A DNA stretch of 64,000 bases from the NCBI GenBank assembly GCA_963695255.1, contig OY968777.1:109409-173408 (forward strand), given 5' to 3'. Every line of letters starts with the position of its first letter. The first letter of the stretch is position 1. Origin of the DNA: an uncultured Bacteriovoracaceae bacterium. GTDB taxonomy: Bacteria > Bdellovibrionota > Bacteriovoracia > Bacteriovoracales > Bacteriovoracaceae. A program made the translations under genes and the position numbers. A model generated the notes under the pieces. It was not told the DNA's origin and did no database searches. It was given only the letters and a program-made list of their open reading frames with translations. Positions 12,297 through 37,606 of this stretch are shown here, piece by piece.

Positions 12297-12297
12297 T

Positions 12298-16096: not shown

Positions 16097-16160
16097 GCTG
16101 CTGCAACAGTCACGTGCTTTACTTTACTCCAAAACAATTCAAGGCCAGAAGGTTCATCGC

Positions 16161-17567: not shown

Positions 17568-17618
17568 CGTTTCTCCTTGCCTTATATTATAAAAGATCGG
17601 TCAAAAAATTACAGTAAT

Positions 17619-18661
17619 TCAAAGGACATCGCTAAACTGTAATGGACTACCCTTATTTAGTTTTCGTTTTGCTTTAGAACCTATCAATCTATCTAACCAT
17701 TTAGGTTCGAGCCCAAAACCAGGACGAATTACACGGATATTTTTAGAAGAAAGCAATTCACCCTTTTCAATATTTTCAACTACGTATAGCGAGCGTCTAA
17801 AAGTTTTTTTATCTTCCGACACCGTCAATGGATAGCGTACTTCGCCCAGAGAACTGTAAGCTCGGCTGCATTCGCTTGCCATCAAAGTAAACTCAGATGG
17901 CTCAAGCGAGAATGAAGAATCGACTCCTCCATCTTTCCGATCTAAGCAAAAATGCTTTTCAATAACTCTAGCACCCAAAGCAGTGGCGGCGACTGGTACG
18001 CCTATTCCGGTAGTATGATCTGACAATCCCGTCATACATTCAAACATTGTTGCCATATGGGGAATAGTTTTAAGATGAGCGTCACTAGGACTCGCTGGAT
18101 AAGCACTGGTACATTTCAATAGTACTAGTTGAGTGCAGCCATGTCTTTTCAGAAACTCAACAGATTCTACAATTTGGGAAAGAGTCGTGGCCCAGTTGAC
18201 ATTAGAACGGGTTTTTTAGTTTCAGCAACTCTCTTTAAAAGCGCCCTATCGGTATTTTCGAACGATGCTATCTTGTAAATAGCACAATCGAGTTCTTCTA
18301 GAAAATCTACCGCTGTTATATCGAACGGAGAGCTAAATGGTATTAGAGATAGCTCTCTCGCATAATCGAATATTTTTTGATGCCACTCCCATGGAGTATG
18401 AGCTTTTTGATATAAATCATGTAGGTCATATCCATTCCACAGCGAATCCTTATCCTGAATTTTATAACAATTGGGGATCGTCATCAAGTCAGCAGTGTAC
18501 GTTTGAAGCTTTATCGCGTCCGCTCCAGAATCAGCCGCTGCTTTCACAATCTCCAGCGCACGCTCTAAGCTTTGGTTGTGGTTACCAGACATTTCAGCAA
18601 TCAAGAAAGGTCTGGTTTCTTTTCCAATTTTTTTGTCAAAAGGGAGATGAATATCTTGCAC
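17619..18661 (-). pseudogene. pseI: Pseudaminic acid synthase PseI (NeuB family), interrupted by a 1-nt frameshift
   Basis: The N-terminal ORF (18167-18661) reads FLIAEMSGNHNQSLERALEIVKAAADSGADAIKLQTY ... KKPVLMSTG and then goes out of frame. The next frame continues TTLSQIVESVEFLKRHGCTQLVLLKCTSAYPASP ... through the SAF domain (17619-18119). The frames join if one base is added at 18187-18193 (minus-strand actgggccacg). Confidence 0.85.
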
Positions 18662-18749
18662 TTAGAATTCCTTTCTTTCTTAAACTCAATCAGCCTTGAA
18701 CAATCGCCTAAAAGATGGTCTTTTTCAATGGTTTGAAATGAAGTCAGCT

Positions 18750-19798
18750 ATGGAAAAAATCAAAAAAACTCGCATCTCGTTTAGAGTTGATTCATCCTCT
18801 TCTATGGGCCTGGGCACCTTATGCGCTGTCTCACACTCGCTAAACAATTCCAACAGTACGACACTTCAATTCATTTTTTTTGTCGTAAGTCTCAAACCGA
18901 CTCAAATTATCTTGTGACTGATTCAGGCTTCGAACTCATTGAGCTCCCAGCTCTCAATATAGATGAGGAATGCCTGTTTCTCGTCTCAATTCTTGATAGT
19001 CATGGGACAGATCTTCTTGTGATCGATCACTATGACTATCTAGTAAAACACGAAACGCTTCTTCGAAAATCTCAACCTGTTCTATGTTTTGATGATACAG
19101 TTATTAGCCATAATTGCGACTTTCTAATCAACCAGCATTTTTTTTGCAAGGCCTCTCTATTTGATGACAAATTGCCATCCGGATGCAAGGTTTTCTGTGG
19201 ACCCCAATATGCTCTCATTAGAGATGATTTTCGCGAAAGTAAGTTGAGGGTGGTCAATAACACAGCCAAGGACGTAACTATTTTTGTAAGTCTGGGCGCC
19301 ACCGATAACCTAAACCTTCTTCCTAAAGTTATCCAAGTGATTGAGGAAACCTTTGTGGATGAAAGGCCTCAAATACAAATCGCAACGAGCTCCTCCAACG
19401 CGGAGCTCGTATCTCTTGAATTCCTCATCGAGCAATCCACTCTTGATATCACTCTCTCAATCGATTCTCCAAGAATTGGGGATATGATGAAAAACTCCAA
19501 TCTGGCCGTGATTGCAGGCGGCTCACTGACTCTTGAAACCTTCTATATGGAAGTCCCATCGATCGTAATACAAACTGCCCAAAATCAGTCAAAGATTGTC
19601 GCCTTCTTAGAGCAGAAAGGTCTTGCTCTTACAATTGATGGCCAAGCGAAAAACTTTTCCTACAACCTAAAAGAGCACTTACGTAAATTCTTCGATCCCA
19701 GCGTTCGCAAACAATTTCAAAAAAAACTCAATCAACTTTTTCATGAGCACTCTCAAGTGGGAGACCTCATTGTTGAAGAATTGGGGATTCAAGTTTGA
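18750..19798 (+). pseudogene. pseG: PseG (UDP-2,4-diacetamido-2,4,6-trideoxy-beta-L-altropyranose hydrolase), interrupted by a 1-nt frameshift near the N-terminus
   Basis: Frame 0 gives MEKIKKTRISFRVDSSSSMGLG. Frame 2 continues (G)HLMRCLTLAKQ ... ATSSSNAEL. Joined, these recreate the conserved FR-DSSS-IG-GH-RC-LA N-terminal motif. Frame 2 has a stop at 18788-18790, so no in-frame start can supply that motif. Confidence 0.8.
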
Positions 19799-20358
19799 AA
19801 ATTGCATTTTTAGGCAACTACTCATCTCAAAAAAGAATTATCCAGGAGCTTGAAAAATTTGGAAGAGTTTCCAGTTTTTCTCTGAAAATTGAGCCGAACT
19901 TACTCGCTCAATTTGATCTTATTATTTCTTATGGCTATCGGCATATTCTCACCGAGGTACATCTTGCTCATTGCTCACGGCCACCTTTAAATTTGCATAT
20001 CTCATATCTTCCTTTTAATAAAGGGGCCCATCCTAATTTTTGGGCATGGTACGAGGGAACGCCCCATGGAGTAAGTATTCACCATATAGATGCGGGAATC
20101 GATACTGGTGACTTGGTCTATCAGGATAAATGCGAGTTCGAGAAAGGAACCACACTTTTAAAGTCTTATCTTCTATTGAAAAAAAACATCGAAGAGCTTT
20201 TTTGTAAACATGTTGAGGATGTTGTGAGGTTTAATTACAAAAGTATACCTCAAAGAGAAGAGGGAACCTTTCACAAAGTCTCGCACCTTCCTCATTTTCA
20301 GGGTGGATGGGATCAAACCATCGAAAGTATTCGAAACCAAATTTCTAGCCAAAGATAA
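19795..20358 (+). CDS. Formyltransferase-domain protein (Fmt N-terminal-domain-like)
   Basis: 187 aa. PLNLHISYLPFNKGAHPNFWA and HHIDAGIDTGDLV match the N...H...D formyltransferase core. ATGA-type overlap with pseG. Confidence 0.65.
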   Translation: MKIAFLGNYSSQKRIIQELEKFGRVSSFSLKIEPNLLAQFDLIISYGYRHILTEVHLAHCSRPPLNLHISYLPFNKGAHPNFWAWYEGTPHGVSIHHIDAGIDTGDLVYQDKCEFEKGTTLLKSYLLLKKNIEELFCKHVEDVVRFNYKSIPQREEGTFHKVSHLPHFQGGWDQTIESIRNQISSQR

Positions 20359-20480: not shown

Positions 20481-21488
20481 TTGAAACTTCGCGTCGGTAT
20501 CTTAGGATACGGCTATATGGGAGAAATACGCCGCCGCGTGCTTCAAGAAATCCCTAAAGTTGACTTGGTTGCCATTTGTGAGGCAAACGAATCCAAGCTC
20601 TTGCATGAAGAACCGATTAAGGTTTGCCGAACCCCCGCGGATTTTTGGCAAACAGGGCTAGATGCCGTTTTTGTCTGTACACCTAATAATTTAATTCCCG
20701 ACCTGGCAGTCGAGGCCCTATCACGAGGTCTCCATGTATTTTGTGAAAAACCTCCAGGAAAAAACTACGAGGATATTTTGCGGATTAGGGCCAAGGAGCT
20801 AGAATCTCCAGGTAAAAAATTAATGTTTGGCTTTAACCATCGCTACCACCCAGGAATTTTGAAGGCAAAAAAATTGATTGATAGTGGGCAATTTGGAAAA
20901 TTGCTTTGGCTGCGTGGCGTATATGGCAAGTCGGGCGGCAAAAATTATGCAAAATCCTGGAGGAATAAAAAGGACGTCGCTGGAGGTGGAATTCTATTAG
21001 ACCAGGGGATTCACATGCTCGACCTGTTCAATCTCTTTGCAGGTGGCCTGGAAGAAGTGAAGGCAATGGTCACTGAAAGTCACTGGAAGTTTGGAATCGA
21101 AGACAATGCCTTTGTAATTTTGAAAAATCGGGATAATGTTCACGCAATGCTTCATTCTTCTGCAACCCAGTGGAAGCACACTTTTGAATTAAATATTGGT
21201 CTCGAGCTCGGACAACTGATCATTCAAGGCCTTTTGTCGAAAAGCGGAAGCTATGGACGAGAAACCTTGGTCATTAGGAAAAGACAGTTTGAAGATGAAA
21301 GTGAGGCGGTGGGCAATCCGATGGAGCAAATTGTGTATTTTGACAAAGATGACTCTTGGCGCATAGAAGTCGAAACGTTTGTAGATGCGATAGAGCATAA
21401 TCGCGAAATTAAAGGAAGCTCGTCTCAAGAGGCCCTTGCCGTCATGAAACTTGTCAGAGATGCCTACCAAAGCTCTGAAAACGGATAA
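20481..21488 (+). CDS. Gfo/Idh/MocA-family NAD(P)-dependent oxidoreductase
   Basis: N-terminal Rossmann VGILGYGYMG, EKP motif (HVFCEKPPG), 335 aa. TTG start preceded by ggagag. Confidence 0.8.
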   Translation: MKLRVGILGYGYMGEIRRRVLQEIPKVDLVAICEANESKLLHEEPIKVCRTPADFWQTGLDAVFVCTPNNLIPDLAVEALSRGLHVFCEKPPGKNYEDILRIRAKELESPGKKLMFGFNHRYHPGILKAKKLIDSGQFGKLLWLRGVYGKSGGKNYAKSWRNKKDVAGGGILLDQGIHMLDLFNLFAGGLEEVKAMVTESHWKFGIEDNAFVILKNRDNVHAMLHSSATQWKHTFELNIGLELGQLIIQGLLSKSGSYGRETLVIRKRQFEDESEAVGNPMEQIVYFDKDDSWRIEVETFVDAIEHNREIKGSSSQEALAVMKLVRDAYQSSENG

Positions 21489-21492
21489 TATC

Positions 21493-22449
21493 ATGGAAAA
21501 CTACATCATCCACTCAGATATCGATGGGAGAAAAATTAAGCCTGCCGATGCTTTTTTGTATTACAAGGAACTCACACAAAAAGACGTTCAGGAAAGATTC
21601 AAAAAATTAGAAGCATCGAATTGTCCAGCATGTGAGGCCAAAGATTTTGGTCATCCTTTTGACTCAATGGGGATCCCCTACGGCCAATGCTCCAATTGCT
21701 TGACGGTCTATGCCACCTCTCGACCCTCAGAAGATGATATTGAGCAATTTTATTTAAATTCTCCTGCTCGATCGTTTTGGGGTGATGTGATTTGGAAAAA
21801 CTCGGAAGAAGAGAGGATCCAAAAAATCCTAACTCCTTTGGTTGATTGGATAGCAAGAGAGTATTCCCAAAAAGAGAAAAACCAAGGTCTCGAGCTCGCA
21901 ACACTTAACGCTACTCATCCTGTGCTGCAAAATCTATTACAAAAACAGCAGTTTACTTGTAGAGATAAAAGACCTTATTACGAGAACCAGGAGGGCCCAG
22001 CTACCGCCAATGTTGACGGAGTTGTGCTGATTGACACGCTTGATAGAGCTCATCAACCAAGCAAGCTTTTGCAACAAGCATCTTCTTTTCTAAAAGAAAG
22101 GGGGAAGGTCCACCTCACATTCACCCTCTCAACAGGGATTGATTTTCTTGAGCTAGGCCAGCATCATCCCCAGCTTTTTCCTCCGGATCGCCTCAACTGT
22201 TTGAGCTACGAAGGGGCCTGCCAGCTTTTCGAAAAAAATGGGTTCACTATTGAAGAATTCAGCACTCCCGGTGTTTTGGACCTTCAATATCTGGAGCAAA
22301 ATGTTCAAAAAATTCATTCTCCATCCTTAAAATATCTTTTGGAAAAGAGAAACTCTGAGTTCGAAAAAAAGCAAACAATTGAATTTTTACAAAAAAACAA
22401 ACTGAGCTCTCTTGCAAGAGTTCAACTCAAAAAAGGACGCTCTCTATGA
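21493..22449 (+). CDS. Zinc-ribbon protein with degenerate class I methyltransferase fold
   Basis: CPAC...CSNC ribbon. The later block DGVVLIDTLDRAHQPSKLL...GKVHLTF resembles methyltransferase motifs II-III. The motif I position reads LELATLNATHP, with no glycines. I prefer the ATG at 21493 to the track start at 21451. Confidence 0.45.
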   Translation: MENYIIHSDIDGRKIKPADAFLYYKELTQKDVQERFKKLEASNCPACEAKDFGHPFDSMGIPYGQCSNCLTVYATSRPSEDDIEQFYLNSPARSFWGDVIWKNSEEERIQKILTPLVDWIAREYSQKEKNQGLELATLNATHPVLQNLLQKQQFTCRDKRPYYENQEGPATANVDGVVLIDTLDRAHQPSKLLQQASSFLKERGKVHLTFTLSTGIDFLELGQHHPQLFPPDRLNCLSYEGACQLFEKNGFTIEEFSTPGVLDLQYLEQNVQKIHSPSLKYLLEKRNSEFEKKQTIEFLQKNKLSSLARVQLKKGRSL

Positions 22450-23054
22450 CCTATGCGGAAAAATATTTCGAGCAAGTTCAGGCCATCGCAAAGAACATTG
22501 ACTTAGAAAAAGTGGAGGCCATGTTGTCGACTCTTTTAAAGACGAGAGAAAATGAGGGTAGAGTTTTTTTTCTCGGCGTCGGGGGGAGTGCTGCCAATTG
22601 CACTCATGCGGTCAATGACTTCCGTAAGATTGGTGGAATTGAGTGCTATAGCCCCGTTGATAATGTGGCCGAACTCACAGCGCGAACAAATGATGAAGGC
22701 TGGGAAACCGTTTTTAAAGAATATCTCAAAACCAGCAAACTGAGCTCCAAAGATGCTGTTTTCATCTTCAGTGTTGGTGGTGGTAATAAAGAAAAAAATG
22801 TCAGCGCTAATCTCGTTTTTGCTATGGATTATGCCAAAGAAATTGGTGCTAAAATCCTTGGAATTGTCGGTCGAGACGGGGGCCATTGCAAAAAAATTGG
22901 CGATAATGTCATTGTGATTCCAACTCAAAGTCAAGATACCATCACGCCTCACGCTGAGGCCTGGCAAGCTGTGATTTGGCATATGTTGGTCTCCGATCCA
23001 CGCATGATGGTGATGTCCAATAAATGGGAATCCATTGAAAAGGCCTCTCTGTGA
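22446..23054 (+). CDS. SIS-domain sugar-phosphate isomerase (GmhA/PtmF-like size)
   Basis: 202 aa. FFLGVGGSAANCTHAVNDF matches the SIS phosphosugar-binding loop. ATGA overlap with the upstream gene. Confidence 0.75.
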   Translation: MTYAEKYFEQVQAIAKNIDLEKVEAMLSTLLKTRENEGRVFFLGVGGSAANCTHAVNDFRKIGGIECYSPVDNVAELTARTNDEGWETVFKEYLKTSKLSSKDAVFIFSVGGGNKEKNVSANLVFAMDYAKEIGAKILGIVGRDGGHCKKIGDNVIVIPTQSQDTITPHAEAWQAVIWHMLVSDPRMMVMSNKWESIEKASL

Positions 23055-23829
23055 TAGACCTTGCTCGCTCTAAGCGGCTGAGAGATGCTTTCAGAAATCG
23101 GGACCAAGTGTTTTCAACATGGACCTCGATCCCTTCCGCTCAAATCGCTGAGGCCTTTACTTTTGTTAATGCCGATTGTGTCTCGATTGATATTGAGCAT
23201 GGAACGGCCAGCTTTGAAGACTGTCAGAGGATTATTGCTGCGGCACAGTCTAATGGACAGTGCTGCCTGCCCAGAATCTCCTACCACTCTATGGAAATGA
23301 TCAAACGTCTCTGCGATTCTGGAGCAGATGGAGTGATTGTTCCCATGGTCGAGACCTGTGAACAGGTTGAAAATCTAATTCAATGGTTAAAGTACCCCCC
23401 TGTTGGCAATCGTAGTTTTGGTATTAACCGTGCACAAAGTTATGGACTAGGCTTCGACGAGTATGTCTCAGCATGGAATCAGTCGTCGTCTCTCATTTTG
23501 CAAATTGAATCTATTCAGGGCGTGCAAAACATAGATGCCCTGCTTTCTTATGAAGAAGTTGATGGAGTCATGGTAGGCCTTATGATCTTTCCGGAAGCCT
23601 AGGAGTGCCCGGCAAGATCAATCACCCCACTGTTATTGAGGCGGCCAACCATGTCGTTGCACAGGCGAAATTAAAGGGCAAGACAAGTGGAACCCAAATC
23701 TCTCGGCCTACGCGTGAGAACCTGGCATTGACCAAGGCCCAAGACTACAACTTTATTGTTCTCTCTTCAGATATTTTTCTTTTATGGGAATGGGCAGAAA
23801 GAATAAATCATCTGATTTCTTTAGAGTAG
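23051..23829 (+). pseudogene. HpcH/HpaI-family (class II, pyruvate-dependent) aldolase, interrupted by a 1-nt frameshift
   Basis: Frame A ends ...EEVDGVMVG-LMIFPEA*. The next frame reads (P)YDLSGSLGVPGKINHPTVIEAANHVV..., which is the conserved G-P-x-DL-S block of the family. Restored by one extra C at 23578-23579 (ggcctt to ggccctt). Confidence 0.75.
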
Positions 23830-23833
23830 CACC

Positions 23834-24472
23834 ATGTACAGCCGTGAAAAATTCAAAGTCATTGTGCTCGATTTTGACGGTGTGATTATCGAGTCGAATC
23901 ATATAAAGCATAACGGTTTTGAAAAAATTTTTAGACCCTATGCGAATCAGTTTGATCAGATTTGGGAATATCACCTTTCTCATCCCGCGACACCACGTTC
24001 TGAAAAATTTGATTTTATTCTGGCCAATCTTCTTCCCGAGCTCTCTCCATCAATCAAAAGCGAATGGCTCCAAGAATTTCATGAGCTGACCTACGATGCG
24101 ATTCTCCAATCCAGTTTTGTACCGGGGGCCTTGGAGTTTTTAGAAAAATATTCCAAAATGGTCCCAATGTATCTTGCCTCTGCGACACCTCAAGAAACAC
24201 TCAATTCAATTCTAAAGTTCAGAGAGCTCAAGCGATATTTTCGAAAAATTTTTGGTGCCCCTTCAAACAAAGCTCGCATCTTAGAACAAATCGTATCGGG
24301 CTGTTCGATTCCCTCCCGAGAGCTTCTTTTTATCGGAGATGCGATGACTGATCTTCTGGCCTCCCAGCAGGCAAAGACTTCATTTTTGGGGCGTGACAGT
24401 GGGGACCCTTTCCCTAAAGCAACTATCGTCAAAAAAGACTTTATAGAAATTGATCAATACCTAGAGTCTTAA
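23834..24472 (+). CDS. HAD-superfamily phosphatase (subfamily IA-like)
   Basis: Motif I VIVLDFDGVIIES and motif IV FIGDAMTDL. 212 aa. Confidence 0.8.
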   Translation: MYSREKFKVIVLDFDGVIIESNHIKHNGFEKIFRPYANQFDQIWEYHLSHPATPRSEKFDFILANLLPELSPSIKSEWLQEFHELTYDAILQSSFVPGALEFLEKYSKMVPMYLASATPQETLNSILKFRELKRYFRKIFGAPSNKARILEQIVSGCSIPSRELLFIGDAMTDLLASQQAKTSFLGRDSGDPFPKATIVKKDFIEIDQYLES

Positions 24473-24482
24473 AGGAATAAAT

Positions 24483-25259
24483 ATGAGCTATCTTGAAAAA
24501 ATGTTTAATCTTGAAGGAAAAGTGGCGGCCATCACAGGAGCAGGCGGTATGCTTTGCGGTGAGATGGCGAAAGGCCTTGCCCGTACCGGGGTAAAAATCC
24601 TCGTGCTCGATCAAAGAAAAGAAAAGGCCGACGCTGTCGTCAAAGAGATTGAATCCAATGGTGGAGAGGCCTTTCCCCTCGCCCACCAGGCCACTGAAAA
24701 GGAAAGCTTCGAAGAAGCTCTGAAAGTTTGTCTAAAACAATATGGCAAATGTGATGTTTTAATTAATGGTGCGGGCATAAACGCACCAACTCCCTTGCTG
24801 GAGATTTCAGAGCAAGAATGGGATGAAATTCTCGCTGTCCATTTGAAAGGCACTCTTTTTGGATGCCAGGTTTTTGGAAAAATGATGCTAGAAAAAGGCG
24901 GTGGATCCATCGTTAATATGAGCTCGGCTTCCGCTGGCCCTCCTCTTTCAAAAGCTTTTGCGTACTCCGTCGCTAAATCGGGAATTCACAACTTAACACA
25001 AAACGTGGCTAGAGAGTGGGCGAGCGCGGGAGTTCGCGTTAATGCACTCCGGCCTGGTTTTTTTCCAACGGAGTGGAGCCAAAAGCATTTTATCGACGAA
25101 AAACGCAAAGAAGCGATTTGGGGACACACCCCTGCAGGGCGATACGGAAGGCCAGACGAGCTTTTGGGTGCTGTTTTGTGGCTTTGCTCGGATGCGGCGA
25201 GCTTTGTCACCGGTTCAGAGGTCACTGTGGATGGCGGATTTTCTTGTATGACGATTTAG
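24483..25259 (+). CDS. Short-chain dehydrogenase/reductase (SDR)
   Basis: ITGAGGMLCG cofactor motif, NGAG, catalytic YSVAKSG (YxxxK). Confidence 0.85.
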   Translation: MSYLEKMFNLEGKVAAITGAGGMLCGEMAKGLARTGVKILVLDQRKEKADAVVKEIESNGGEAFPLAHQATEKESFEEALKVCLKQYGKCDVLINGAGINAPTPLLEISEQEWDEILAVHLKGTLFGCQVFGKMMLEKGGGSIVNMSSASAGPPLSKAFAYSVAKSGIHNLTQNVAREWASAGVRVNALRPGFFPTEWSQKHFIDEKRKEAIWGHTPAGRYGRPDELLGAVLWLCSDAASFVTGSEVTVDGGFSCMTI

Positions 25260-25275
25260 AATAAAAGGAAAAAGC

Positions 25276-26025
25276 GTGCAGAAAACAATTGTTGTCACCG
25301 GAAGCTCCCAGGGGATCGGCCGGGTTCTCGTTGAACAGTTTGCCAAAAATGGCGATCAAGTCATTGCCTGTGCCCGAAAAGGAAATGAATGGAGTCAAAA
25401 CATTCCTGCAAATGTTAAATTTTTTGAATTTGACCTCACGAAGCGCAACTCTCACTTCCAACTTGTCGAAGAGGCAATCAAATGGAGCGGAAAAATTGAT
25501 GTCTATATCAACAACCTGGGACTTTCTGCCTGGATGCCGCTTCAAGAAATTGATGAAGACTTTGCGAAAAAGATGATTGAAACCAATTTGTTAAGTGCTC
25601 TTTGGGGCTCACAGGCCTTTGCAGAAAAAGCGAGCAAAGACTCGTGCCTTATTAATATTTCCAGCCTAGCGGGCAAGCGAGGCTCGGCCAACAATGGACT
25701 CTACTGCGCCTCAAAATTTGCGGTCAATGGCCTCACTCAATCATTGGCAAAAGAGCTGGGCCCTCGAGGAATCCGGGTCAATGCGGTTTGCCCTGTTTAC
25801 ATAAAAACTCATAATTTGCTTGAGGCCCTCGAAGATAAGAACTCCCCTACTGCGGGTGGAGACACTGATCAATATTTCGAGAATTTTTCTCAATCCCAAA
25901 CAGCGCTCAAGCGGCTTCCTTTGGCAGAGGAGATTGCATCCACTTGTCTCTTTCTCGCGTCCCAAGCCGCATCGGGGATCACCGGCCAGTGCCTAAACGT
26001 TGATTGCGGAGTCATGCCCCAATGA
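25276..26025 (+). CDS. Short-chain dehydrogenase/reductase (SDR)
   Basis: VTGSSQGIGR, NNLG, catalytic YCASKFA. GTG start after aaagga. Confidence 0.85.
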   Translation: MQKTIVVTGSSQGIGRVLVEQFAKNGDQVIACARKGNEWSQNIPANVKFFEFDLTKRNSHFQLVEEAIKWSGKIDVYINNLGLSAWMPLQEIDEDFAKKMIETNLLSALWGSQAFAEKASKDSCLINISSLAGKRGSANNGLYCASKFAVNGLTQSLAKELGPRGIRVNAVCPVYIKTHNLLEALEDKNSPTAGGDTDQYFENFSQSQTALKRLPLAEEIASTCLFLASQAASGITGQCLNVDCGVMPQ

Positions 26026-26800
26026 TCGCTGGTCAAAAAATTGCTGCTATTATCCCTGCGCGAATGGGCTCCTCAAGGTTTCCAGGGAAGCCTTTGGTGA
26101 AAATTCTTGGACTGGCAATGATTGAACATGTGCGAAGAAGGGCCCTTCGAATGGATTTCATCGATGAAGTTATTGTCGCAACTTGTGATCAAGAAATCCA
26201 AACACTTGTCGAATCTCATGGTGGCCGCGTTATTATGACATCAAACACGCACGAACGGTGTACGGATCGAATTGAAGAGGCCGCTCGCCAACTCTCTGCA
26301 GAGATTATCGTCAATATTCAAGGTGATGAGCCGATGGTCGCAGAGGACGCCATTCGTAGAGTCATCGAACCTTTTGAAAATGCAAAATCGCTCAACTGTA
26401 GCTGCGTTATCTATCCCATCACTGAGGACCTTGAATTTCATAGTGTGAATATTGTGAAAACAGTCTTGTCGTTAGAGAAAAAAATTCTTTATTTTTCTCG
26501 GCCCCCATCCCTTCAAATACCAGGAGCTCTGGAACAAAGATTTTTAAGCAATCAGGGATTATGGCCTTTCGAAAAAAATTCTTGCATCAATTTTCAACCT
26601 TGCACGAAGGCCCGCTTGAGCAATCTGAATCGGTAGACATGCTTCGAGTTCTTGAAAATGGAGGAGAAATCCAGGGAGTGCTCTCTGATTTTGAAAGCAA
26701 AGGAGTCGATACACCGGAGCAAGTTGAGATGATTGAAAAACTCATCAAAAACAACAGTGAAGAATATAGAATCTACCAAGAGATTGCTCATGATATCTAA
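26022..26800 (+). pseudogene. KdsB/NeuA-type CMP-sugar-acid cytidylyltransferase, interrupted by a 1-nt frameshift
   Basis: N-terminus IAAIIPARMGSSRFPGKPL and IVNIQGDEP are KdsB-family motifs. The reading ...ILYFSR-PPSLQ... leaves the family pattern. The next frame gives (A/P)PIPSNT...SGIMAFRKKFLHQFSTLHEGPLEQSESVDMLRVLENGGEI. Restored by one extra base at cgg/ccccc, 26499-26506. Confidence 0.75.
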
Positions 26801-27725
26801 AAAAGTGGCCGTTTGCTCTCGAACTTTTTCCAAGCATCAAGTTTTGAGAGCAGAAACACTCGCACTTTTTTCAAATGTGAAGTTTAATGATGACGGACTT
26901 GCTCTCTCTGAAGAAAGTCTGGTGAATTTTCTTGAAGACTGCGTTGGTTGCATCATCGCTCTTGAGCCTATGCAGCGAGATGTTTTGGCAAAACTTCCTG
27001 CCCTAAAGTTTCTTTCAAAATACGGAGTCGGTCTTGATAATCTCGATCTAGAGGCAATTAATGATTACTCTGTTCACCTAGGACATACCGCAGGGGTAAA
27101 TAGACGTTCCGTAAGTGAGTTGGCCCTTGCCCTTATTCTTAATTGCTTAAGAAAAATTTCTCTTCACGACCGAGAAGTGAAGCAAGGAAATTGGAAAAAT
27201 AAAGGTGGGCAAACCCTTTCGGGAAAAAACATAGGAATTATCGGCTTCGGCAGAATAGGTCAGGATTTCGCAAAAATCGTAAAGGGATTCGGAACGTCTA
27301 TTCAAGTCTACGATACTGAAGACAAAGAGCTGGAGGCTAAAGCGCTCGACTGTAAAGCTACCTCACTGCCGGAACTTTTAGAGTCCAGTGATATCATCAC
27401 TCTTCATGTCCCCTTCCAACCCAGTACGCATAACCTTATCGCTGAGAACGAACTTAATCTCATGAAAAAAAATGCCATTCTCATTAATACTTCCCGCGGA
27501 GGCGTTGTCGATGAAACCGCTCTCTTCCAAGCACTCAAGCTTGAAAAGATTGCGGCAGCAGCGTCTGATGTTTTTGTAAATGAACCATTAAACGCTACAT
27601 CCCCCCTGCTCCAACTTGATAATTTTACCGCGACACCACATATTGGAGGAAGCTCCGATGAGTCTATTCTGGCAATGGGTCGGGCCGCCATTTCAAACTT
27701 GAAACATTTATTTGAAGAGTCTTAA
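26790..27725 (+). CDS. D-isomer-specific 2-hydroxyacid dehydrogenase family (PGDH-like)
   Basis: NAD motif GIIGFGRIGQDFA; catalytic-region blocks INTSRGGVVDE and TPHIGGSS. The ATG at 26790 overlaps the upstream stop region. Confidence 0.8.
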   Translation: MISKKVAVCSRTFSKHQVLRAETLALFSNVKFNDDGLALSEESLVNFLEDCVGCIIALEPMQRDVLAKLPALKFLSKYGVGLDNLDLEAINDYSVHLGHTAGVNRRSVSELALALILNCLRKISLHDREVKQGNWKNKGGQTLSGKNIGIIGFGRIGQDFAKIVKGFGTSIQVYDTEDKELEAKALDCKATSLPELLESSDIITLHVPFQPSTHNLIAENELNLMKKNAILINTSRGGVVDETALFQALKLEKIAAAASDVFVNEPLNATSPLLQLDNFTATPHIGGSSDESILAMGRAAISNLKHLFEES

Positions 27726-27727
27726 CA

Positions 27728-28648
27728 ATGAGCCCCCTTTCTTTTGCTTTAATTGTTCCAACCAAAGATCGACCTGAGGATCTCAAAAAGCTTCTTCGAT
27801 CTATCCAAGGACAGACCCGCAGACCTGAACATATTATTATTGTCGACGGATCAGATCATCCGGTCCATGACCTTGTAAATGGGTTTAAAGACCTCGAAAT
27901 TCAATACATTCCAGTAAGGCCACCTTCGCTTCCCAAACAGAGAAATGTTGGACTCAAAAATGTTCCGTCCAATATCAAGTGGATAGGCTTTTTAGACGAC
28001 GATCTTGTGCTTGAAAACTCAACCCTCGCATCCTTAGAAGATTTTCTAAAAGGATGCCCTTCCTCTGTCCAGGGATGTGGGCTGAGCATCATCAATCAGC
28101 CTTCAGCAAAAGGAAAATTCTTCAATCGTTTTTTTCTTCTCGACGACGGTCCTGGAAAAATTACATCATCAGGTTTTCCCAGCGAGATCCCTTTTTCTCC
28201 AGAAAACTCTATTCAGGTGGATTGGCTCTACGGTGGCGCCACCTTTTGGTCGAAAGCCGTGATCGAAACAACACATTTTGATGAGTGGTTCAAGGGAACT
28301 GGCTACATGGAAGATGTTGATTTTTCTTATCGTGTCTCACGGGAACATGAGCTTATGATTTGCTCAAGCGCAAAGTGCCACCACTTTCATCACCCGATCA
28401 AAGAAGAAAAGTTTCAAAGCATTGGAAAGTGGCAGCTGACCTCTTGGTGGTATTTTGTCCAGAAACATGGGTCATTTTCTCTCATTGCTTTTCTTTGGAG
28501 TGCTACAGGAATTTTGCTGAGAAATACCCTGGCGATGCTGATAACGGGATTTTCACGTTCTTATCGCCTGAAAGTCAGGGGAAACCTTCAAGGACTTCTC
28601 TCAATCTTCACCGGTGCCTACATCAAAGAAAAAGGCTTTCAAAAATGA
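27728..28648 (+). CDS. Glycosyltransferase family 2
   Basis: LIVPTKDRPEDLKKLL...IIIVDGSD and FLDDD (DxD) are GT-A signatures. Confidence 0.75.
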   Translation: MSPLSFALIVPTKDRPEDLKKLLRSIQGQTRRPEHIIIVDGSDHPVHDLVNGFKDLEIQYIPVRPPSLPKQRNVGLKNVPSNIKWIGFLDDDLVLENSTLASLEDFLKGCPSSVQGCGLSIINQPSAKGKFFNRFFLLDDGPGKITSSGFPSEIPFSPENSIQVDWLYGGATFWSKAVIETTHFDEWFKGTGYMEDVDFSYRVSREHELMICSSAKCHHFHHPIKEEKFQSIGKWQLTSWWYFVQKHGSFSLIAFLWSATGILLRNTLAMLITGFSRSYRLKVRGNLQGLLSIFTGAYIKEKGFQK

Positions 28649-28658
28649 TAGTGAAAAG

Positions 28659-29366
28659 TTAAATTTTAAAGCCCGCTGCAAGAGCATCGTTATAGAACAT
28701 TTTGACTGTCTCCAGAGAAAACTCTTCGAGATCCTTGCCGAGATTCGAAAGCTTGGACAAAATATCTGGGCCTACTGTAATCACATCACATCCCATCTCA
28801 TTAGCCTGAATGATATTGAAAAGTTCTCTTGGGGAGGCCCACAAAAGTTCTGCATTTTCTTCTTTCCGAGTTATGGCCAGGGCCTCTTTCATGAGAGGAA
28901 CCGGATCTTTGCCAGTATCTGCAATCCTTCCTGCAAATACTGAGACATAAGCACCAGGGGTACCTTTAAGGGCCTGAACTGTTTCGCGAACCTGGTTTAA
29001 AGTGAAGAGTGCTGTAACATTGAGTTTAATTCCTGCTTGCGTGAGATCTGTAATCAACTCATAAGAATAGATCTTTTTGGTATTCATTACCGGAATCTTT
29101 ACGTAGACATTTTCTCCCCAACTTTTGATCTCAAGCGCCTGTTCCTTCATGGCCTGAAAATCATCTGCAAAGACTTCAAAAGAAATAGGAAGATGAGGTA
29201 TTTTTTCTAAAACCTCTTGAGCGAATTTGCGGTAGTCGGAAATACCGGCCTTCTTCATCAGCGTAGGGTTTGTTGTGAGACCAGAAATATGAGGTTTAGA
29301 GGCGAGCTCAACCATTTCGGAAACTTTGGCCCCGTCAGCAAAAATTTTAACTTTCAATTGTTTCAT
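28659..29366 (-). CDS. Transaldolase/fructose-6-phosphate-aldolase-family protein
   Basis: 235 aa. GLTTNPTLM and the Schiff-base lysine context VYVKIP are typical of the short transaldolase family. Confidence 0.75.
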   Translation of the reverse strand: MKQLKVKIFADGAKVSEMVELASKPHISGLTTNPTLMKKAGISDYRKFAQEVLEKIPHLPISFEVFADDFQAMKEQALEIKSWGENVYVKIPVMNTKKIYSYELITDLTQAGIKLNVTALFTLNQVRETVQALKGTPGAYVSVFAGRIADTGKDPVPLMKEALAITRKEENAELLWASPRELFNIIQANEMGCDVITVGPDILSKLSNLGKDLEEFSLETVKMFYNDALAAGFKI

Positions 29367-29496: not shown

Positions 29497-31083
29497 TCAC
29501 TGAGAATCCTTACAAAACAAGGAAAGGCCCTCCTCACTGATGGGAGAAATGTAAGTCTCAATAAAGCTTTGAGTAGTAGAATTCAAAATTTGTCTGTCCT
29601 CCTCCGAAAGACTGTCGATCTGGCTAAAGGCATTCTGCAAACTTTCCTCATCCCAAACAATCCATTTGTTGGCCTTAAGGGCAAAGAGCGGGTCAAAGTT
29701 AAATGCACTTTTAATCTGATAATGGAGAACTGGCCTTCCCAGTTTAAGTGCTTCGAGAGCGACAGTACTTCCCCAATACAAAACTCTATCGCAATCTCTT
29801 AGGTCATCAAGCAATTCGTTTTGATCACCGAAGGTCACGTTTGGAATATCACCATATGAGTACTCTCCTGTATCAATTTTATCCAAGGGAAGTGTCGGAT
29901 GAGCGCGAATAACGAACCTGTACGAGGGAAACTTATCAGCAACATTCAAAACAAACCGGACCATACTTGAAACAGCATAAACCCCCTCAAGTGCAACAAG
30001 GACAGTTTTTCTCTGTTTCGTGAGCAAGCTTTTTAAATTGAAAAGATAGTCATACCGGAGCGAGCTGCTGCTGAATATCTCTGTTCTAAAATATCCCCCC
30101 CATTTTTTTAATAACTCTGCATTAAGGTTTCCTAAAGTTAGAATGCGATGAGGGGTAGGAGTATATTGGACCTCATCTTGAGAGAGAAACATGTTCACCG
30201 ACGCTAATGGCATCACAGAATGCTGATAACCAATCGTCAGAGTTGAAGGCGAATAATTTTCGAAGGCAAGCAAACCCTGTTTTTCCCAAGGATTATTTTC
30301 AAATGTGTAGATGTAGGTTTCTATGTTGAACTCTTCACCCAAGTTTTTCATCGCTTGATGGTAGAGAAGGCTAAAGATCGTGTTAGGGTCTAGCAGCTCT
30401 GAACGATAGAAAGTCGCTAAGTTTTTTGTCCGCTCGAAAGGCAGACCGACCATTTCTGCTTTTGGTTGCATTTTCAGATGAGAAAAAATCTTAAAACCAC
30501 AACTCAGCAGATCTCTAAATCCAAGAAAAAGAAAAAAAGAACAAGACTCTGGCAGCTCTCTCAGAGCTAAGGATTTCCTAAAGCAGGCACTTGGGTCAAA
30601 AATAGTAAGGACCGCTTTATTTTTTTTCTCTTTAAGAAATGACTTCAGTCCAGGAAAAAACGGATCTTTAAAAGACTGGTCGTTGATAGAAGAATTGAAT
30701 ATAACCGTTTTTAGGACTGTGATTTTTTTTCCGTGGTAGCGCTGTTTTAACCGCTTTTTTTTTCCGAAATGCAAGGCCCTAGTCAAGACCACCCTTAAAA
30801 AGCATTGAAGAAACTGCTTTGAAAAACGAAGTATATTTTTGAAAAGAGGTGGTGCGTGCAAAGGCTGCTCATCAAGATTCTCGAAATTTTGCAGATGGAA
30901 TCTATTTTTTGATGAAAACCAGAAGGCCTGCCAAACTTCATCTCGAGGAAAAGCACGGCTCACCCGGTCCACGAAGGCCTGATATTTCCGAATAGGCCTC
31001 AACTCTAGCGGCTCTTGTTGGCTTTCTTGAGTAATTTTCATCGATCTCCCACCCATAGGCGTTTCAGAACTCAAAATTTTCAA
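29497..31083 (-). CDS. Hypothetical protein, GT-B-like C-terminal lobe (possible glycosyl or nonulosonate transferase)
   Basis: 528 aa. The C-terminal pattern KTVLVALEG...FVIRAHPT...DRVLYWGSTVALEALKLGRPVLHY resembles a Rossmann-type transferase. The start is uncertain (31083 or the internal ATG at 31041). Confidence 0.4.
   Translation of the reverse strand: MKILSSETPMGGRSMKITQESQQEPLELRPIRKYQAFVDRVSRAFPRDEVWQAFWFSSKNRFHLQNFENLDEQPLHAPPLFKNILRFSKQFLQCFLRVVLTRALHFGKKKRLKQRYHGKKITVLKTVIFNSSINDQSFKDPFFPGLKSFLKEKKNKAVLTIFDPSACFRKSLALRELPESCSFFLFLGFRDLLSCGFKIFSHLKMQPKAEMVGLPFERTKNLATFYRSELLDPNTIFSLLYHQAMKNLGEEFNIETYIYTFENNPWEKQGLLAFENYSPSTLTIGYQHSVMPLASVNMFLSQDEVQYTPTPHRILTLGNLNAELLKKWGGYFRTEIFSSSSLRYDYLFNLKSLLTKQRKTVLVALEGVYAVSSMVRFVLNVADKFPSYRFVIRAHPTLPLDKIDTGEYSYGDIPNVTFGDQNELLDDLRDCDRVLYWGSTVALEALKLGRPVLHYQIKSAFNFDPLFALKANKWIVWDEESLQNAFSQIDSLSEEDRQILNSTTQSFIETYISPISEEGLSLFCKDSQ

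Positions 31084-37529: not shown

Positions 37530-37606
<77 letters not shown>

Follow-up and report, generated by a model that had tools for sequence, protein, structure and literature searches.

The question raised by this locus is which sugar is made by an operon that has the layout of a Kdo-type pathway and is assembled from parts unlike those of the canonical one. In the window (the whole 64,000-nucleotide stretch analyzed here, from an uncultured Bacteriovoracaceae bacterium), 10 genes at positions 20481-28648, all on the plus strand, overlap or almost abut. The reading that we favor, with moderate confidence, is that this operon, together with a convergent transaldolase gene and a gene for a 514-aa GT-B protein, is one copy of a widespread cassette predicted to make a Kdo-family, non-amino 2-keto sugar acid, which would be activated with CMP and passed to dedicated glycosyltransferases in a large surface-glycan island.

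Gene content and organization

The genes are as follows.

20481-21488 (+): GFO, Gfo/Idh/MocA NAD(P) oxidoreductase, first cassette gene (PF22725, 4e-23; PF02894; PF01408)
21493-22449 (+): ZMT, four-Cys zinc ribbon plus class I methyltransferase-like fold (Methyltransf_23 PF13489, weak, 9e-7)
22446-23054 (+): SIS, stand-alone sugar-phosphate isomerase, 202 aa (SIS_2 PF13580, 1.5e-9)
23051-23829 (+): ALD, HpcH/HpaI-type class II (metal-dependent) pyruvate aldolase (HpcH_HpaI PF03328, 3e-20)
23834-24472 (+): HAD, HAD-IA-type phosphatase, COG0546-like (HAD_2, PF13419/PF00702)
24483-25259 (+): SDR1, classical short-chain dehydrogenase (PF13561, 3e-51)
25276-26025 (+): SDR2, classical SDR (PF13561, 2e-48)
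26022-26800 (+): CYT, KdsB-family CMP-transferase (CTP_transf_3 PF02348, 2e-40)
26790-27725 (+): 2HA, D-isomer-specific 2-hydroxyacid dehydrogenase (PF02826, 9e-61)
27728-28648 (+): GT2 glycosyltransferase, last operon gene (PF00535)
28659-29366 (-): TAL, convergent transaldolase (TAL_FSA, 2e-45; TIGR02134, 342 against a cut-off of 282)
29497-31041 (-): candidate dedicated glycosyltransferase, 514 aa, GT-B fold (AF2 model and Foldseek)

Pfam-type domain matches agree with the 10 families and the gene order given in the initial annotation, and the tight coupling and convergent downstream transaldolase that it described were likewise recovered. With starts compared to independent gene calls (the ZMT start at 21493 matches the call on contig L084), the junctions comprise gaps of 4, 4, 10, 16, and 2 nt and overlaps of ATGA, GTGA, ATGA, and 11 nt; the TAL stop lies 10 nt from that of GT2. 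Promoter-like and terminator-like signals inside the operon were not above chance.

Frameshifts in ALD and CYT

As the sequence is given, two genes are frameshifted, as had been reported. ALD reads as 23051-23602 plus 23605-23829, with its C-terminal part in a different frame, and CYT as 26004/26022-26636 plus 26561-26800, both pieces of which match KdsB models. The breaks are 1-nt deletions at 23577/23578 (GGCC^(C)TT) and near 26500 (CGG^(G)CCCCC), respectively, and one inserted base restores each full-length protein, with end-to-end alignment to homologs (23 of them for the repaired, 259-aa ALD). Counting those in an upstream NeuB and PseG, four one-base deletions fall within 8.4 kb.

Such clustering within a surface-glycan island could mean that the operon is decaying or phase-variable, with all four frameshifts real and the pathway switched off in the strain sequenced; phase variation and loss during culture are common among surface-glycan genes. 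We consider this quite unlikely, since GGCC underlies four of the four deletions although GGCC±1 makes up only 3% of the window, and the runs involved (2 to 5 bases) are too short for classical slipped-strand switches. Moreover, in an independent assembly of run ERR12040027, whose contigs are otherwise near-identical (1 SNP in 5.1 kb), the missing base is present at each of the two sites that could be checked. At the ALD lesion, contig L084 reads GGCCCTTA, which is the predicted repair, and Logan contig L085 begins at the CYT lesion and has the downstream frame APIPSNTRSS.... All six ERR12040027 contig ends fall on GGCC sites, a pattern typical of read errors tied to a sequence motif. The ALD and CYT frameshifts are therefore probably sequencing (consensus) errors, and the organism probably carries an intact operon.

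Conservation and two architectures of the cassette

Seeding with the aldolase gave 225 relatives in species-representative genomes, among whose loci the 52 flanked by 6 kb or more on both sides form the well-flanked set. CYT is present in 47 of these 52 loci, the SDR pair in 44, and the full GFO/ZMT/SIS/HAD/CYT/2HA set in 25. An independent ZMT-seeded metagenome scan found ALD in the same order in 22 of 23 informative loci and KdsA in none of the 23. Both seeds return the order GFO-ZMT-SIS-(TAL)-ALD-HAD-(SDR-SDR)-CYT-2HA, of which locus L001 is the best example (10 genes, identical order, 32-75% identity). Hosts include Omnitrophota, Planctomycetes, Chloroflexi, Elusimicrobia, Bdellovibrionota, Proteobacteria, Firmicutes, and one methanogen, and among the carriers without LPS are a Methanomicrobiaceae archaeon, Chloroflexi, and Eubacteriales. 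The transaldolase and the 514-aa protein belong to the conserved set as well. We found no description of the cassette in the literature.

This conservation bears on the idea that a capsule-type, KpsU-like CMP-Kdo synthetase merely sits beside sugar-acid catabolic genes (an HpaI/GarL-like aldolase and KduD-like SDRs). CYT does exceed KdsB cut-offs, and ALD and SDR1 have catabolic enzymes as their nearest characterized relatives, but the order repeats in at least eight phyla, in glycosyltransferase-rich loci and with translationally coupled junctions, and ALD and the SDRs score far under every catabolic equivalog cut-off. Chance juxtaposition is thus barely conceivable, being effectively ruled out by the conserved order.

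Two architectures can be distinguished. In type A, to which the present operon belongs and of which ZMT is the hallmark, KdsA and NeuB are absent within 10 kb, the SIS-TAL-ALD-HAD block is contiguous in almost all loci, and the SDR pair is missing as a pair from only a few. In type B (Leptospira, Legionella, Flavobacteria, and SAR11), a bona fide KdsA (with CBS, and with or without KdsC) takes the place of GFO/ZMT/SIS/TAL/HAD/2HA, while ALD is kept: the type B aldolase is orthologous (53% median identity) and adjoins the bona fide KDO8P synthase. KdsA is complementary to that six-gene set and not to ALD. The cassette does recur as a unit in different phyla, and the SIS-ALD-HAD-CYT quartet singled out in the initial annotation occurs together in 26 of the 52 well-flanked genome loci and in almost all ZMT-seeded metagenome loci; the conserved core is rather ALD plus the KdsB-like CYT (plus the SDR pair).

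Functional assignment of the cassette proteins

Repaired CYT exceeds the cut-offs of three KdsB models (NF009905, 285.7 against 255; NF003952, 264.6 against 193; TIGR00466, 164.3 against 155.2). It shares 38-41% identity with CMP-Kdo synthetases of solved structure, Escherichia coli KpsU being the top PDB match (1gq9; E value of 1.6e-45, 37.7% identity). This KdsB-level similarity agrees with the CMP-activated ulosonic acid proposed at the outset, and a 2-keto sugar acid activated with CMP is the very likely end product. That this acid is new or unassigned seems fairly probable; against this, CYT, which exceeds the TIGR00466 cut-off (if by only 9 bits), may be nothing other than a CMP-Kdo synthetase.

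A nonulosonic-acid locus of the Pse type, containing two NeuB genes, lies directly upstream of the operon.

14388-15368: NeuB, upstream of the operon
17619-18661 (-): second NeuB, upstream of the operon

This locus also holds PseG, formyltransferase, DegT aminotransferase, and a second CTP_transf_3 gene. The earlier remark that no NeuB partner is present thus applies inside the operon but not to its immediate surroundings. The cassette might accordingly be an accessory module of this Pse/Leg pathway, feeding or modifying a NeuB-made sugar, and NeuC-like and CTP_transf_3 genes do occur near the cassette in locus L002 and a few others. We judge this very unlikely: a NeuB homolog lies within 10 kb in only 3 of 82 loci, the conserved set has no aminotransferase, and KdsB models give CYT 286 bits whereas PseF gives only 39. 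A likeness of SIS and SDR to the legionaminic acid enzymes PtmF/PtmA is an unlikely reading for a cassette without aminotransferase or NeuB, >90% of whose loci are NeuB-free within 10 kb.

In ALD, the invariant residues His50, Arg75, Glu153, and Asp179 coincide with the YfaU active site, and the pyruvate-aldolase catalytic set is intact. Of the two catabolic groupings considered initially, citrate lyase beta does not apply; ALD groups with HpaI/YfaU/GarL (PDB profile matches, E value of ∼1e-40), though at only ∼28-30% identity and far under their equivalog cut-offs. The setting of ALD is glycan loci.

SIS and HAD are, as had been claimed, not orthologs of KdsD and KdsC. SIS lacks CBS domains, did not match KdsD in the NCBIfam search, and is distantly GmhA-like (top NCBIfam match gmhA, 49 bits against a cut-off of 209; top PDB matches phosphoheptose isomerases, E value of ∼1e-8), with 55-75% identity among type A loci. 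HAD (top PDB match 2ah5, E value of 1e-6) co-varies with SIS and TAL; a KdsC/YrbI type was ruled out because KdsC models gave nothing, and a genuine KdsC homolog occurs in type B loci instead.

GFO falls far under every NCBIfam equivalog cut-off, is 46-62% identical across loci, and always adjoins ZMT, to which it is naturally fused in frame in P0196. ZMT matched no NCBIfam family and lacks the Gly-rich SAM loop; its invariants are C44/C47/C66/C69 and the motifs EFSTPGxLD and FLQxNxLSSxxR. The closest full-length Foldseek analogs of its AF2 model (pLDDT 90.9) are the sugar C-3-methyltransferases KijD1/TcaB9/MtmC (TMq ∼0.5). 2HA, also under all NCBIfam equivalog cut-offs, co-varies with GFO/ZMT and is nearest to short (type III) phosphoglycerate dehydrogenases (PDB 1wwk, 209 bits; next match, 158 bits). 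SDR1 is the best-conserved cassette protein (53-75% identity across phyla) and is nearest to sugar-acid SDRs, namely, mannonate oxidoreductase, gluconate 5-DH, and KduD (NF006132, 263 bits, under the cut-off of 281); SDR2 (46-62% identity elsewhere) always pairs with it.

TAL is the predicted functional counterpart of the transaldolase set between SIS and ALD in other loci. In two Bdellovibrionales MAGs (L008 and L020), the cassette has a homolog of it (49-53% identity) next to it, and in other phyla a TalC/MipB-like gene lies within it. All cassette transaldolases have Phe in the YVSxFxGR motif, which we take to mark the transaldolase rather than the FSA type. GT2 homologs (29-50% identity) follow the cassette in ∼15 other loci, and homologs of the 514-aa protein flank it in ∼45 of 82, in both architectures. 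Pfam and PDB sequence searches with the latter gave no match, and only sub-threshold matches were seen to TIGR04326, TIGR04396, and the BFO_1060 glycosyltransferase model. Its AF2 model (pLDDT 91.6) retrieves only generic GT-B structures in Foldseek (TM 0.4-0.59), and by this modeling it is a GT-B protein of a so far undescribed family.

Proposed pathway

In the type A route that we propose, TAL and the GmhA-like SIS would supply a phosphorylated aldose, by LmbR/LmbN logic, and ALD would condense this aldose with pyruvate (or hydroxypyruvate), yielding a 2-keto(-3-deoxy) acid phosphate. HAD would release the free acid, the optional SDR pair could epimerize one carbinol via oxidation and reduction, CYT would form the CMP-sugar, and GT2 and/or the GT-B protein would transfer it; GFO, ZMT, and the PGDH-like 2HA may tailor the sugar or provide the keto-acid partner. 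We give the chain-building role of ALD somewhat less than an even chance. That an HpcH aldolase replaces KdsA, as first suggested, is unproven, because type B keeps ALD beside a bona fide KdsA, a coexistence that fits a synthase role badly. This aldolase-first route also leaves 2HA without an obvious substrate, and one type A locus (L120) has no ALD.

The main, tentative alternative is oxidative. Transaldolase and SIS would assemble the phosphate of a higher aldose (octose 8-P, in the manner of LmbR/LmbN), GFO would oxidize C1 to the aldonate, 2HA would oxidize C2 to the 2-keto acid, and HAD would dephosphorylate it; ALD would then act as a tailoring enzyme in a step shared by the two architectures, inverting, e.g., C4 (or C3) of the 2-ulosonic acid by retro-aldol/aldol, before the SDR pair and CYT act. 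The five-enzyme front end would correspond in function to the KdsA/KdsC of type B, which explains both the strict complementarity of KdsA(+KdsC) with GFO/ZMT/SIS/TAL/HAD/2HA and the presence of ALD in types A and B alike. Under this scheme, 2HA has a natural substrate, a phospho-2-hydroxyacid, in line with its top PDB match and with the membership of 2-ketogluconate reductases in its family; the KdsB-like CYT would suit an eight-carbon product, the transaldolase type of TAL fits, and the related Leptospira "sru" locus has an annotated 6-phosphogluconolactonase (10.1101/771931). However, a class II pyruvate aldolase acting as an epimerase in nucleotide-sugar biosynthesis has no precedent, the gene order (with SIS-TAL-ALD-HAD contiguous and 2HA at the far end) is unlike the reaction order, and ZMT is given no role. 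The product would also be 3-OH in type A and 3-deoxy in type B, even though ALD and the SDRs are orthologous.

In an unlikely variant, 2HA and HAD would turn 3-phosphoglycerate into hydroxypyruvate, to which ALD would join the SIS/TAL-derived aldose, giving a 3-hydroxy-2-ulosonic (Ko-like) acid. The proximity of 2HA to 3-phosphoglycerate dehydrogenases, the small-substrate, phosphoglycolate-phosphatase-like character of HAD, and the HpcH-family "hydroxyketoacid aldolases" (6r62 and 7nuj) among the PDB relatives of ALD point this way. Yet 2HA occurs without HAD in some loci (L056, L057, L075, and L157), HAD tracks SIS/TAL instead, and KdsA plus ALD in type B is left without account.

Comparison with known systems

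Precedents exist for two parts of the proposed scheme: LmbR/LmbN for a transaldolase with a GmhA-like isomerase (PMC5854111) and EpaA/EpaB for an SDR-cytidylyltransferase module that epimerizes and then activates (PMC12053666).

Operon composition and genomic setting

The operon at positions 20481 to 28648 comprises ten + strand genes, and domain and profile matches bear out the family names that the initial annotation had given them. These genes and their neighbors are listed below under the short names used throughout.

Features of the operon and the adjoining glycan island
14388-20358: Pse-type nonulosonic-acid module, directly upstream of the operon
14388-15368: NeuB, in the upstream module
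15365-16096: second CTP_transf_3 gene of the region, in the upstream module
17619-18661, - strand: second NeuB, split at 18189, in the upstream module
Upstream module: PseG (TIGR03590, 178 bits against a cutoff of 154)
Upstream module: hexapeptide acyltransferase and methyltransferase
19795-20358: formyltransferase, in the upstream module
Upstream of the operon overall: acyl- and methyltransferases, including those of the module, and a DegT aminotransferase
GFO, operon gene 1, + strand: Gfo/Idh/MocA oxidoreductase
ZMT, operon gene 2, + strand: 4-Cys zinc-ribbon protein with a weak methyltransferase-like match
SIS, operon gene 3, + strand: 202-aa SIS isomerase with an SIS_2 domain only, lacking CBS
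ALD, operon gene 4, + strand: HpcH/HpaI aldolase
HAD, operon gene 5, + strand: HAD phosphatase
SDR1 and SDR2, operon genes 6 and 7, + strand: two classical SDRs
CYT, operon gene 8, + strand: CTP_transf_3 cytidylyltransferase matching KdsB models
2HA, operon gene 9, + strand: D-2-hydroxyacid dehydrogenase
GT2, operon gene 10, + strand: family 2 glycosyltransferase
TAL, 28659-29366, - strand: convergent transaldolase
GT-B partner, 29497-31041, - strand: 514-aa Pfam-less protein
Further downstream: a WecA-like GT4-family gene and three more glycosyltransferases

The tight spacing described earlier was confirmed, with overlaps of 4 to 11 nt or gaps of 2 to 16 nt at the junctions, and a promoter and terminator scan within the operon gave signals at chance level only. 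The transaldolase gene is indeed convergent, its stop codon lying 10 nt from that of GT2. The first 36 kb of the window (1 to 36 kb) form a single large surface-glycan island. It is literally true, as had been stated, that no NeuB partner lies inside the operon, but a Pse-type nonulosonic-acid pathway sits next door. A tRNA-Met (CAT) at 37530 to 37606 (- strand), the sole RNA gene returned by Rfam and tRNA scans of the window, marks the downstream edge of the island; housekeeping genes (pseudouridine synthase and ScpB) lie beyond it.

Frameshifts at GGCC sites

Two operon genes had been described as frameshifted, which holds for ALD and CYT in the window sequence but biologically probably reflects sequencing error. 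The lesions, at 23577/78 in ALD and near 26500 in CYT, are each a single-base deletion, and one inserted base yields proteins that align end to end with their homologs. Two more one-base deletions occur in the island, in the second NeuB (~18189) and at the N terminus of PseG (18812). A GGCC motif underlies all four deletions (18189, 18812, 23578, and ~26500), while GGCC±1 makes up 3% of the window. Three Logan contigs (L083 to L085), assembled independently from run ERR12040027, agree with the window over 8.4 kb except for one SNP, and the extra base is present at both lesion sites that they span: contig L084 has an extra G at 18812, restoring the PseG N terminus, and the ALD site reads GGCCCTTA, identical to the predicted repair. 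All six contig ends fall on GGCC, three of them at the NeuB, ALD, and CYT lesions.

Because GGCC is found at every lesion and every contig end, and because the independent contigs carry the extra base, the ALD, CYT, NeuB, and PseG lesions are probably motif-specific read or consensus errors rather than gene decay; for the CYT and NeuB sites, which lie beyond the read-through of the contigs, we infer the same artifact. The error site is perhaps methylated. GGCC occurs 323 times in the window, against 117 sites expected from base composition (a 2.8-fold excess) and 196 from a second-order Markov model, while CCGG, GCGC, and CGCG occur as often as expected. A GGCC-insertion test flagged NeuB, the normal SIS/ALD junction, one doubtful site at 35219, and no others; a generic junction-based frameshift detector was swamped by ordinary overlapping gene junctions. 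At 34386 to 35788 (- strand), a base inserted at GGCC 35219 would merge a Pfam-less 201-aa ORF with the downstream 270-aa GT2 into a 474-aa ORF; the site represents a fifth error or else a 16-nt overlap of the ordinary kind between genes.

Conservation of the cassette

The repaired ALD has >3,800 database relatives, the best of which are 52 to 63% identical and about 260 aa in length. The cassettes nearest to that of the window are found in Bdellovibrionota MAGs. One locus from an uncultured source (L001) retains all ten genes in order at 32 to 75% identity, and a Thermodesulfobacteriota MAG (L002) keeps the order except that a transaldolase gene sits between SIS and ALD. A scan employing one genome per species retrieved 225 aldolase relatives. 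The ORFs of 82 loci were clustered, and the window proteins were scored against these loci by tblastn; the ORF families derive from simple ORF calling and single-linkage clustering, and the tblastn tables provide the more robust counts. For counting, we used the 52 loci flanked on each side by 6 kb or more. CYT was present in 47 of these 52 and the SDR pair in 44; SIS, HAD, and CYT occurred together in 26 of the 52 aldolase-seeded loci, and 25 carried the full GFO/ZMT/SIS/HAD/CYT/2HA set. Cassette carriers include Omnitrophota, Planctomycetes, Elusimicrobia, Chloroflexi, Thermodesulfobacteriota, Bdellovibrionota, Alpha- and Gammaproteobacteria, Eubacteriales, Aminicenantes, and one Methanomicrobiaceae archaeon.

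As an independent control, a metagenome scan was seeded with ZMT, the most cassette-specific protein; ALD was retrieved in the same order in 22 of 23 informative loci and KdsA in none (0/23). The SIS-ALD-HAD-CYT quartet singled out in the initial annotation is thus conserved elsewhere, across phyla. On plasmids, tblastn with an Ensifer-type ALD returned only 35% paralogs, and no cassette relative was found in viral contigs. A full-text literature search returned no paper describing the cassette. A Leptospira preprint (10.1101/771931) reports genes upstream of rfb that track serogroup and merely lists their annotations, namely, HpcH aldolase, phosphoheptose isomerase, 6-phosphogluconolactonase, and CMP-Kdo synthetase. 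A paper on the Geobacillus flagellin island contains none of the cassette genes.

Two cassette architectures

The loci fall into two architectures. Type A, that of the window, has the order GFO-ZMT-SIS-(TAL)-ALD-HAD-(SDR-SDR)-CYT-2HA. Type B has the order KdsA-CBS-(NanM-like MT)-ALD-SDR-SDR-CYT, with KdsC in some loci, and is carried by Leptospira noguchii, Legionella, Flavobacteria, Methylobacter, SAR11, and Syntrophales. By its NF003543 score (334 bits; cutoff, 242), the type B KdsA is a true KDO8P synthase; it is essentially mutually exclusive with GFO, ZMT, SIS, TAL, HAD, and 2HA, while ALD and CYT occur in type A and type B alike. Identity among ALD sequences is 59 to 69% for loci of one type and 53% across the two types; for CYT, the corresponding values are about 54% and 36%. 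Among type A loci, eight lack the SDR pair (L017, L045, L052, L067, L112, L142, L145, and L164). Three loci (L056, L057, and L075) keep GFO, a ZMT-like gene, and 2HA and lack SIS, TAL, and HAD.

The co-varying units are therefore {SIS, TAL, HAD}, {GFO, ZMT, 2HA}, and {SDR, SDR}, together with a universal pair, {ALD, CYT}. Given these locus-specific losses, the exclusivity of KdsA, and the occurrence of ALD and CYT in both types, the quartet does not stand as the conserved core; by co-variation, that role falls to ALD and CYT. The comparison poses a testable question, namely, why a pyruvate aldolase is present where KdsA already is.

Three further observations concern individual loci. Locus L120 (11013 to 14468) stands alone among the type A loci seen in lacking ALD; its order is GFO-ZMT-SIS-TAL-HAD-SDR-SDR, with CYT upstream, and it could offer a natural test of what ALD does. 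In Leptospira noguchii serovar Panama (L048, 10775 to 15029), an IS element (rve integrase, 12100 to 12915) lies between SDR1 and SDR2 and is adjoined by a PhyH-like dioxygenase fragment; the type B cassette may be inactive or remodeled in that strain. In Flavobacteria- and Methylobacter-type cassettes, KdsA is preceded by two conserved proteins of about 270 aa, families f22 and f27 (for example, L031, 630 to 1457; L059, 6980 to 7783), neither of which has a Pfam or NCBIfam match.

Aldolase and cytidylyltransferase

ALD belongs to PF03328 (73 bits), which places it in the TIM-barrel aldolase family. An alignment of 24 sequences shows no variation at His50, Arg75, Glu153, or Asp179, and these residues line up with the active site of YfaU; from these features, ALD is predicted to be a genuine class II pyruvate aldolase. 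Its N-terminal fragment scores below the HpaI, GarL, and RhmA equivalog cutoffs (80 to 86 bits against 369 to 441), and the full-length protein is ~28 to 30% identical to YfaU and GarL. A citrate-lyase-beta type was rejected, as all matches were to HpaI, YfaU, or GarL.

The repaired CYT passes KdsB cutoffs (NF009905, 285.7 against 255; TIGR00466, 164.3 against 155.2), the latter by only 9 bits. The best PDB match is KpsU (E value of 1.6e-45; 37.7% identity), and identity to Coxiella KdsB is 41%, with KpsU and Coxiella KdsB 45% identical to each other. In identity, the CYT clade stands at much the same distance from KdsB/KpsU (38%) and from type B CYT (36%), against 45% between KdsB and KpsU. 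From this threshold-level similarity, CYT is predicted to be a KdsB-family CMP-transferase. The type B CYT of L048 falls below all KdsB cutoffs, and CYT itself scores 38.8 bits on the PseF model (cutoff, 205.7). The text of PMC3149649 contains no residue list for the Kdo-binding site of KdsB.

Other cassette enzymes

In NCBIfam, SIS matched GmhA models (49 bits, far below the cutoff) and gave no KdsD match; by profile, it is distantly GmhA-like and not KdsD-like. A5P isomerases consisting of an SIS domain only exist, so SIS may still have A5P isomerase activity. HAD matches HAD-IA models (COG0546 type) with no KdsC match in the profile search; some type B loci encode a genuine KdsC-family protein (TIGR01670, 121 bits; cutoff, 107). 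2HA is closest to short phosphoglycerate dehydrogenases (1wwk, 209 bits; next match, 158 bits).

The TAL of the window is a TIGR02134 transaldolase, and the copies embedded in cassettes elsewhere are TalC/MipB-like. Window and embedded copies alike have Phe at a diagnostic position where FSA aldolases have Tyr, a difference that we take to separate the two activities, and the cassette TALs are on this basis transaldolases. The possibility that TAL is an FSA-type aldolase yielding A5P from glycolaldehyde was rejected on the same residue.

GFO and ZMT are always adjacent, and a metagenomic protein of 528 aa (P0196) joins, in frame, the C-terminal half of a Gfo/Idh/MocA oxidoreductase of the cassette type to a complete ZMT domain. 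This natural fusion indicates that GFO and ZMT act together. The structural model of ZMT (pLDDT 90.9) predicts a class I MTase fold together with a zinc ribbon, with the sugar C-3-methyltransferases KijD1, TcaB9, and MtmC as best full-length structural analogs. The Gly-rich SAM loop (motif I, E/DxGxGxG) is absent from ZMT; the window protein reads LELATLNATH, and the family consensus is IADxNTxxxGY.

In about 45 of 82 loci, covering type A and type B, the cassette has a homolog of the GT-B partner next to it. The protein has no Pfam match (a 12-member scan gave nothing significant) and no PDB profile match, so no CAZy family can be assigned; sub-threshold matches were to Leptospira O-antigen and Tannerella BFO_1060 glycosyltransferase models only. 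An AF2 model (P0123; pLDDT 91.6) gave 273 PDB matches at E values of ≤1e-3, all top ones GT-B enzymes, and predicts a GT-B fold with two Rossmann-like domains. The 514-aa protein is the best candidate for the dedicated transferase.

Proposed pathway

Taken jointly, the gene content makes it fairly probable that the end product is a CMP-activated, non-amino, Kdo-family 2-keto sugar acid, often O-methylated or O-acetylated, formed independently of KdsA and NeuB in type A and moved by cassette-linked glycosyltransferases. The sugar is taken as non-amino because the conserved set lacks an aminotransferase; the recurrence of NanM-like, FkbM-like, and hexapeptide genes points to frequent O-methylation or O-acetylation. 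Its carbon chain may be C8, C9, C10, or longer. By analogy with EpaA/EpaB, the SDR-SDR-CYT block would epimerize the free acid, which a dedicated CMP transferase would then activate.

For the earlier steps, we tentatively favor the route of the initial annotation, without holding it to be probable: TAL and SIS would supply an aldose phosphate, ALD would add pyruvate to it, and HAD would dephosphorylate the product. This order is favored by the contiguous SIS-TAL-ALD-HAD block, the co-variation of SIS, TAL, and HAD, and the straightforward chemistry of the ALD family. The complementarity with KdsA is accounted for by an alternative that, considered singly, is rather unlikely, in which TAL, SIS, GFO, 2HA, and HAD would make the 2-keto acid oxidatively (ketose-P to aldose-P to aldonate-P to 2-keto-aldonate-P to free acid) as the counterpart of the type B KdsA/KdsC, and ALD would act later, in a step common to both types such as a retro-aldol/aldol inversion at C4. 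It also supplies a substrate for 2HA, but an aldolase role of this kind is without precedent. Rough weighing leaves pyruvate addition by ALD and the oxidative front end about equal, and a variant with hydroxypyruvate as the donor of the ALD step takes most of the remaining probability.

Significance

On microbial surfaces, the outermost and immunologically decisive positions are occupied by CMP-activated keto sugar acids (Kdo, sialic, legionaminic, and pseudaminic acids). To our knowledge, all known routes to them employ PEP-dependent synthases. Judged from its sequences, the cassette probably encodes a CMP-ulosonic-acid pathway that relies on new enzymology and probably leads to a new product. 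A bolder version is quite conceivable, although we stop short of calling it likely: a hitherto undescribed cross-domain route whose ulosonic acid is built or remodeled by a class II pyruvate aldolase instead of a PEP-dependent KdsA/NeuB synthase, giving an uncatalogued CMP-sugar (candidates are a stereoisomer of Kdo, a 3-hydroxy acid resembling Ko, or a "higher" ulosonic acid of C10/C11) that is possibly carbon-modified by the GFO-fused ZMT and installed by a new GT-B family.

If true, the cassette would extend the described routes by one that uses different enzymology and probably yields a new sugar; carriers, at least 225 species-representative genomes by their aldolase relatives, span Leptospira, Legionella, SAR11, anammox-related Planctomycetes, candidate phyla, and one methanogen. 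It would also give a gene handle on unexplained CMP-linked alpha-keto acids detected by mass spectrometry, such as the unassigned ones, higher-carbon acids among them, that a 2026 SugarBase preprint reports with no genes attached. In Leptospira LPS loci, it would provide a serovar-linked marker, and as biocatalysts it would offer a sugar-acid-forming class II aldolase, a KdsB paralog with altered specificity, and a new GT-B family.

Comparison with known pathways

The closest parallel is the Kdo pathway (KdsD, KdsA, KdsC, and KdsB/KpsU), with which the cassette shares the formal sequence of isomerase, C3 addition giving a 2-keto acid, phosphatase, and CMP transfer, as well as a CYT that is KdsB-family at threshold and 38 to 41% identical to solved enzymes. 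Of the four pathway enzymes searched for, KdsB was found and KdsA, KdsD, and KdsC were not: neither DAHP_synth_1 nor NeuB occurs in 20481 to 28648 or in type A loci, with KdsA confined to type B; SIS is GmhA-like and lacks CBS; and the phosphatase is of HAD-IA rather than YrbI type. The cassette further differs in adding four oxidoreductases, a methyltransferase-like protein, and a transaldolase, in occurring also in organisms without LPS, and in that a real KdsA coexists with the aldolase in the sister architecture.

Nonulosonic-acid pathways (a NeuB/PseI/LegI synthase with NeuA/PseF/LegF, or the Kdn-9-P synthase and phosphatase) likewise give a CMP-activated alpha-keto sugar acid for surface glycans, and the cassette of the window physically adjoins a Pse-type locus. 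However, a PEP-dependent NeuB-type synthase, an aminotransferase, and an acetyltransferase are lacking from the cassette, and CYT is of KdsB rather than NeuA/PseF type; neither a NeuB-type synthase nor a NeuA/PseF/LegF-type transferase was found within the module, and in 79 of 82 loci no NeuB lies near the cassette. EpaA/EpaB (and Ela/Aci) modules epimerize nonulosonic acids in Acinetobacter (PMC12053666), where an SDR and a dedicated CTP_transf_3 enzyme turn an ulosonic acid into its activated epimer, in parallel to SDR-SDR-CYT; the likeness is drawn by analogy. EpaA is a cytidylyltransferase-aldo/keto-reductase fusion acting on Pse, and no aldolase is involved.

In lincosamide biosynthesis, the transaldolase LmbR and the GmhA-like isomerase LmbN produce an octose 8-phosphate (PMC5854111). 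At the family level, this pairing of a dedicated transaldolase with a GmhA-like isomerase, followed by a phosphatase (LmbK) and a nucleotidyltransferase (LmbO), resembles the cassette, but the Lmb pathway leads to GDP-octose without an aldolase or keto acid. With HpaI, YfaU (RhmA), and GarL, ALD shares the fold, metal ligands, and catalytic Arg/His, and its expected chemistry would be the interconversion of a 4-hydroxy-2-oxo acid with pyruvate and an aldehyde. The cassette aldolases differ from these enzymes in forming a tight clade of their own (47 to 69% identity), with scores a quarter of the equivalog cutoffs, and in residing in glycan biosynthesis loci rather than catabolic operons.
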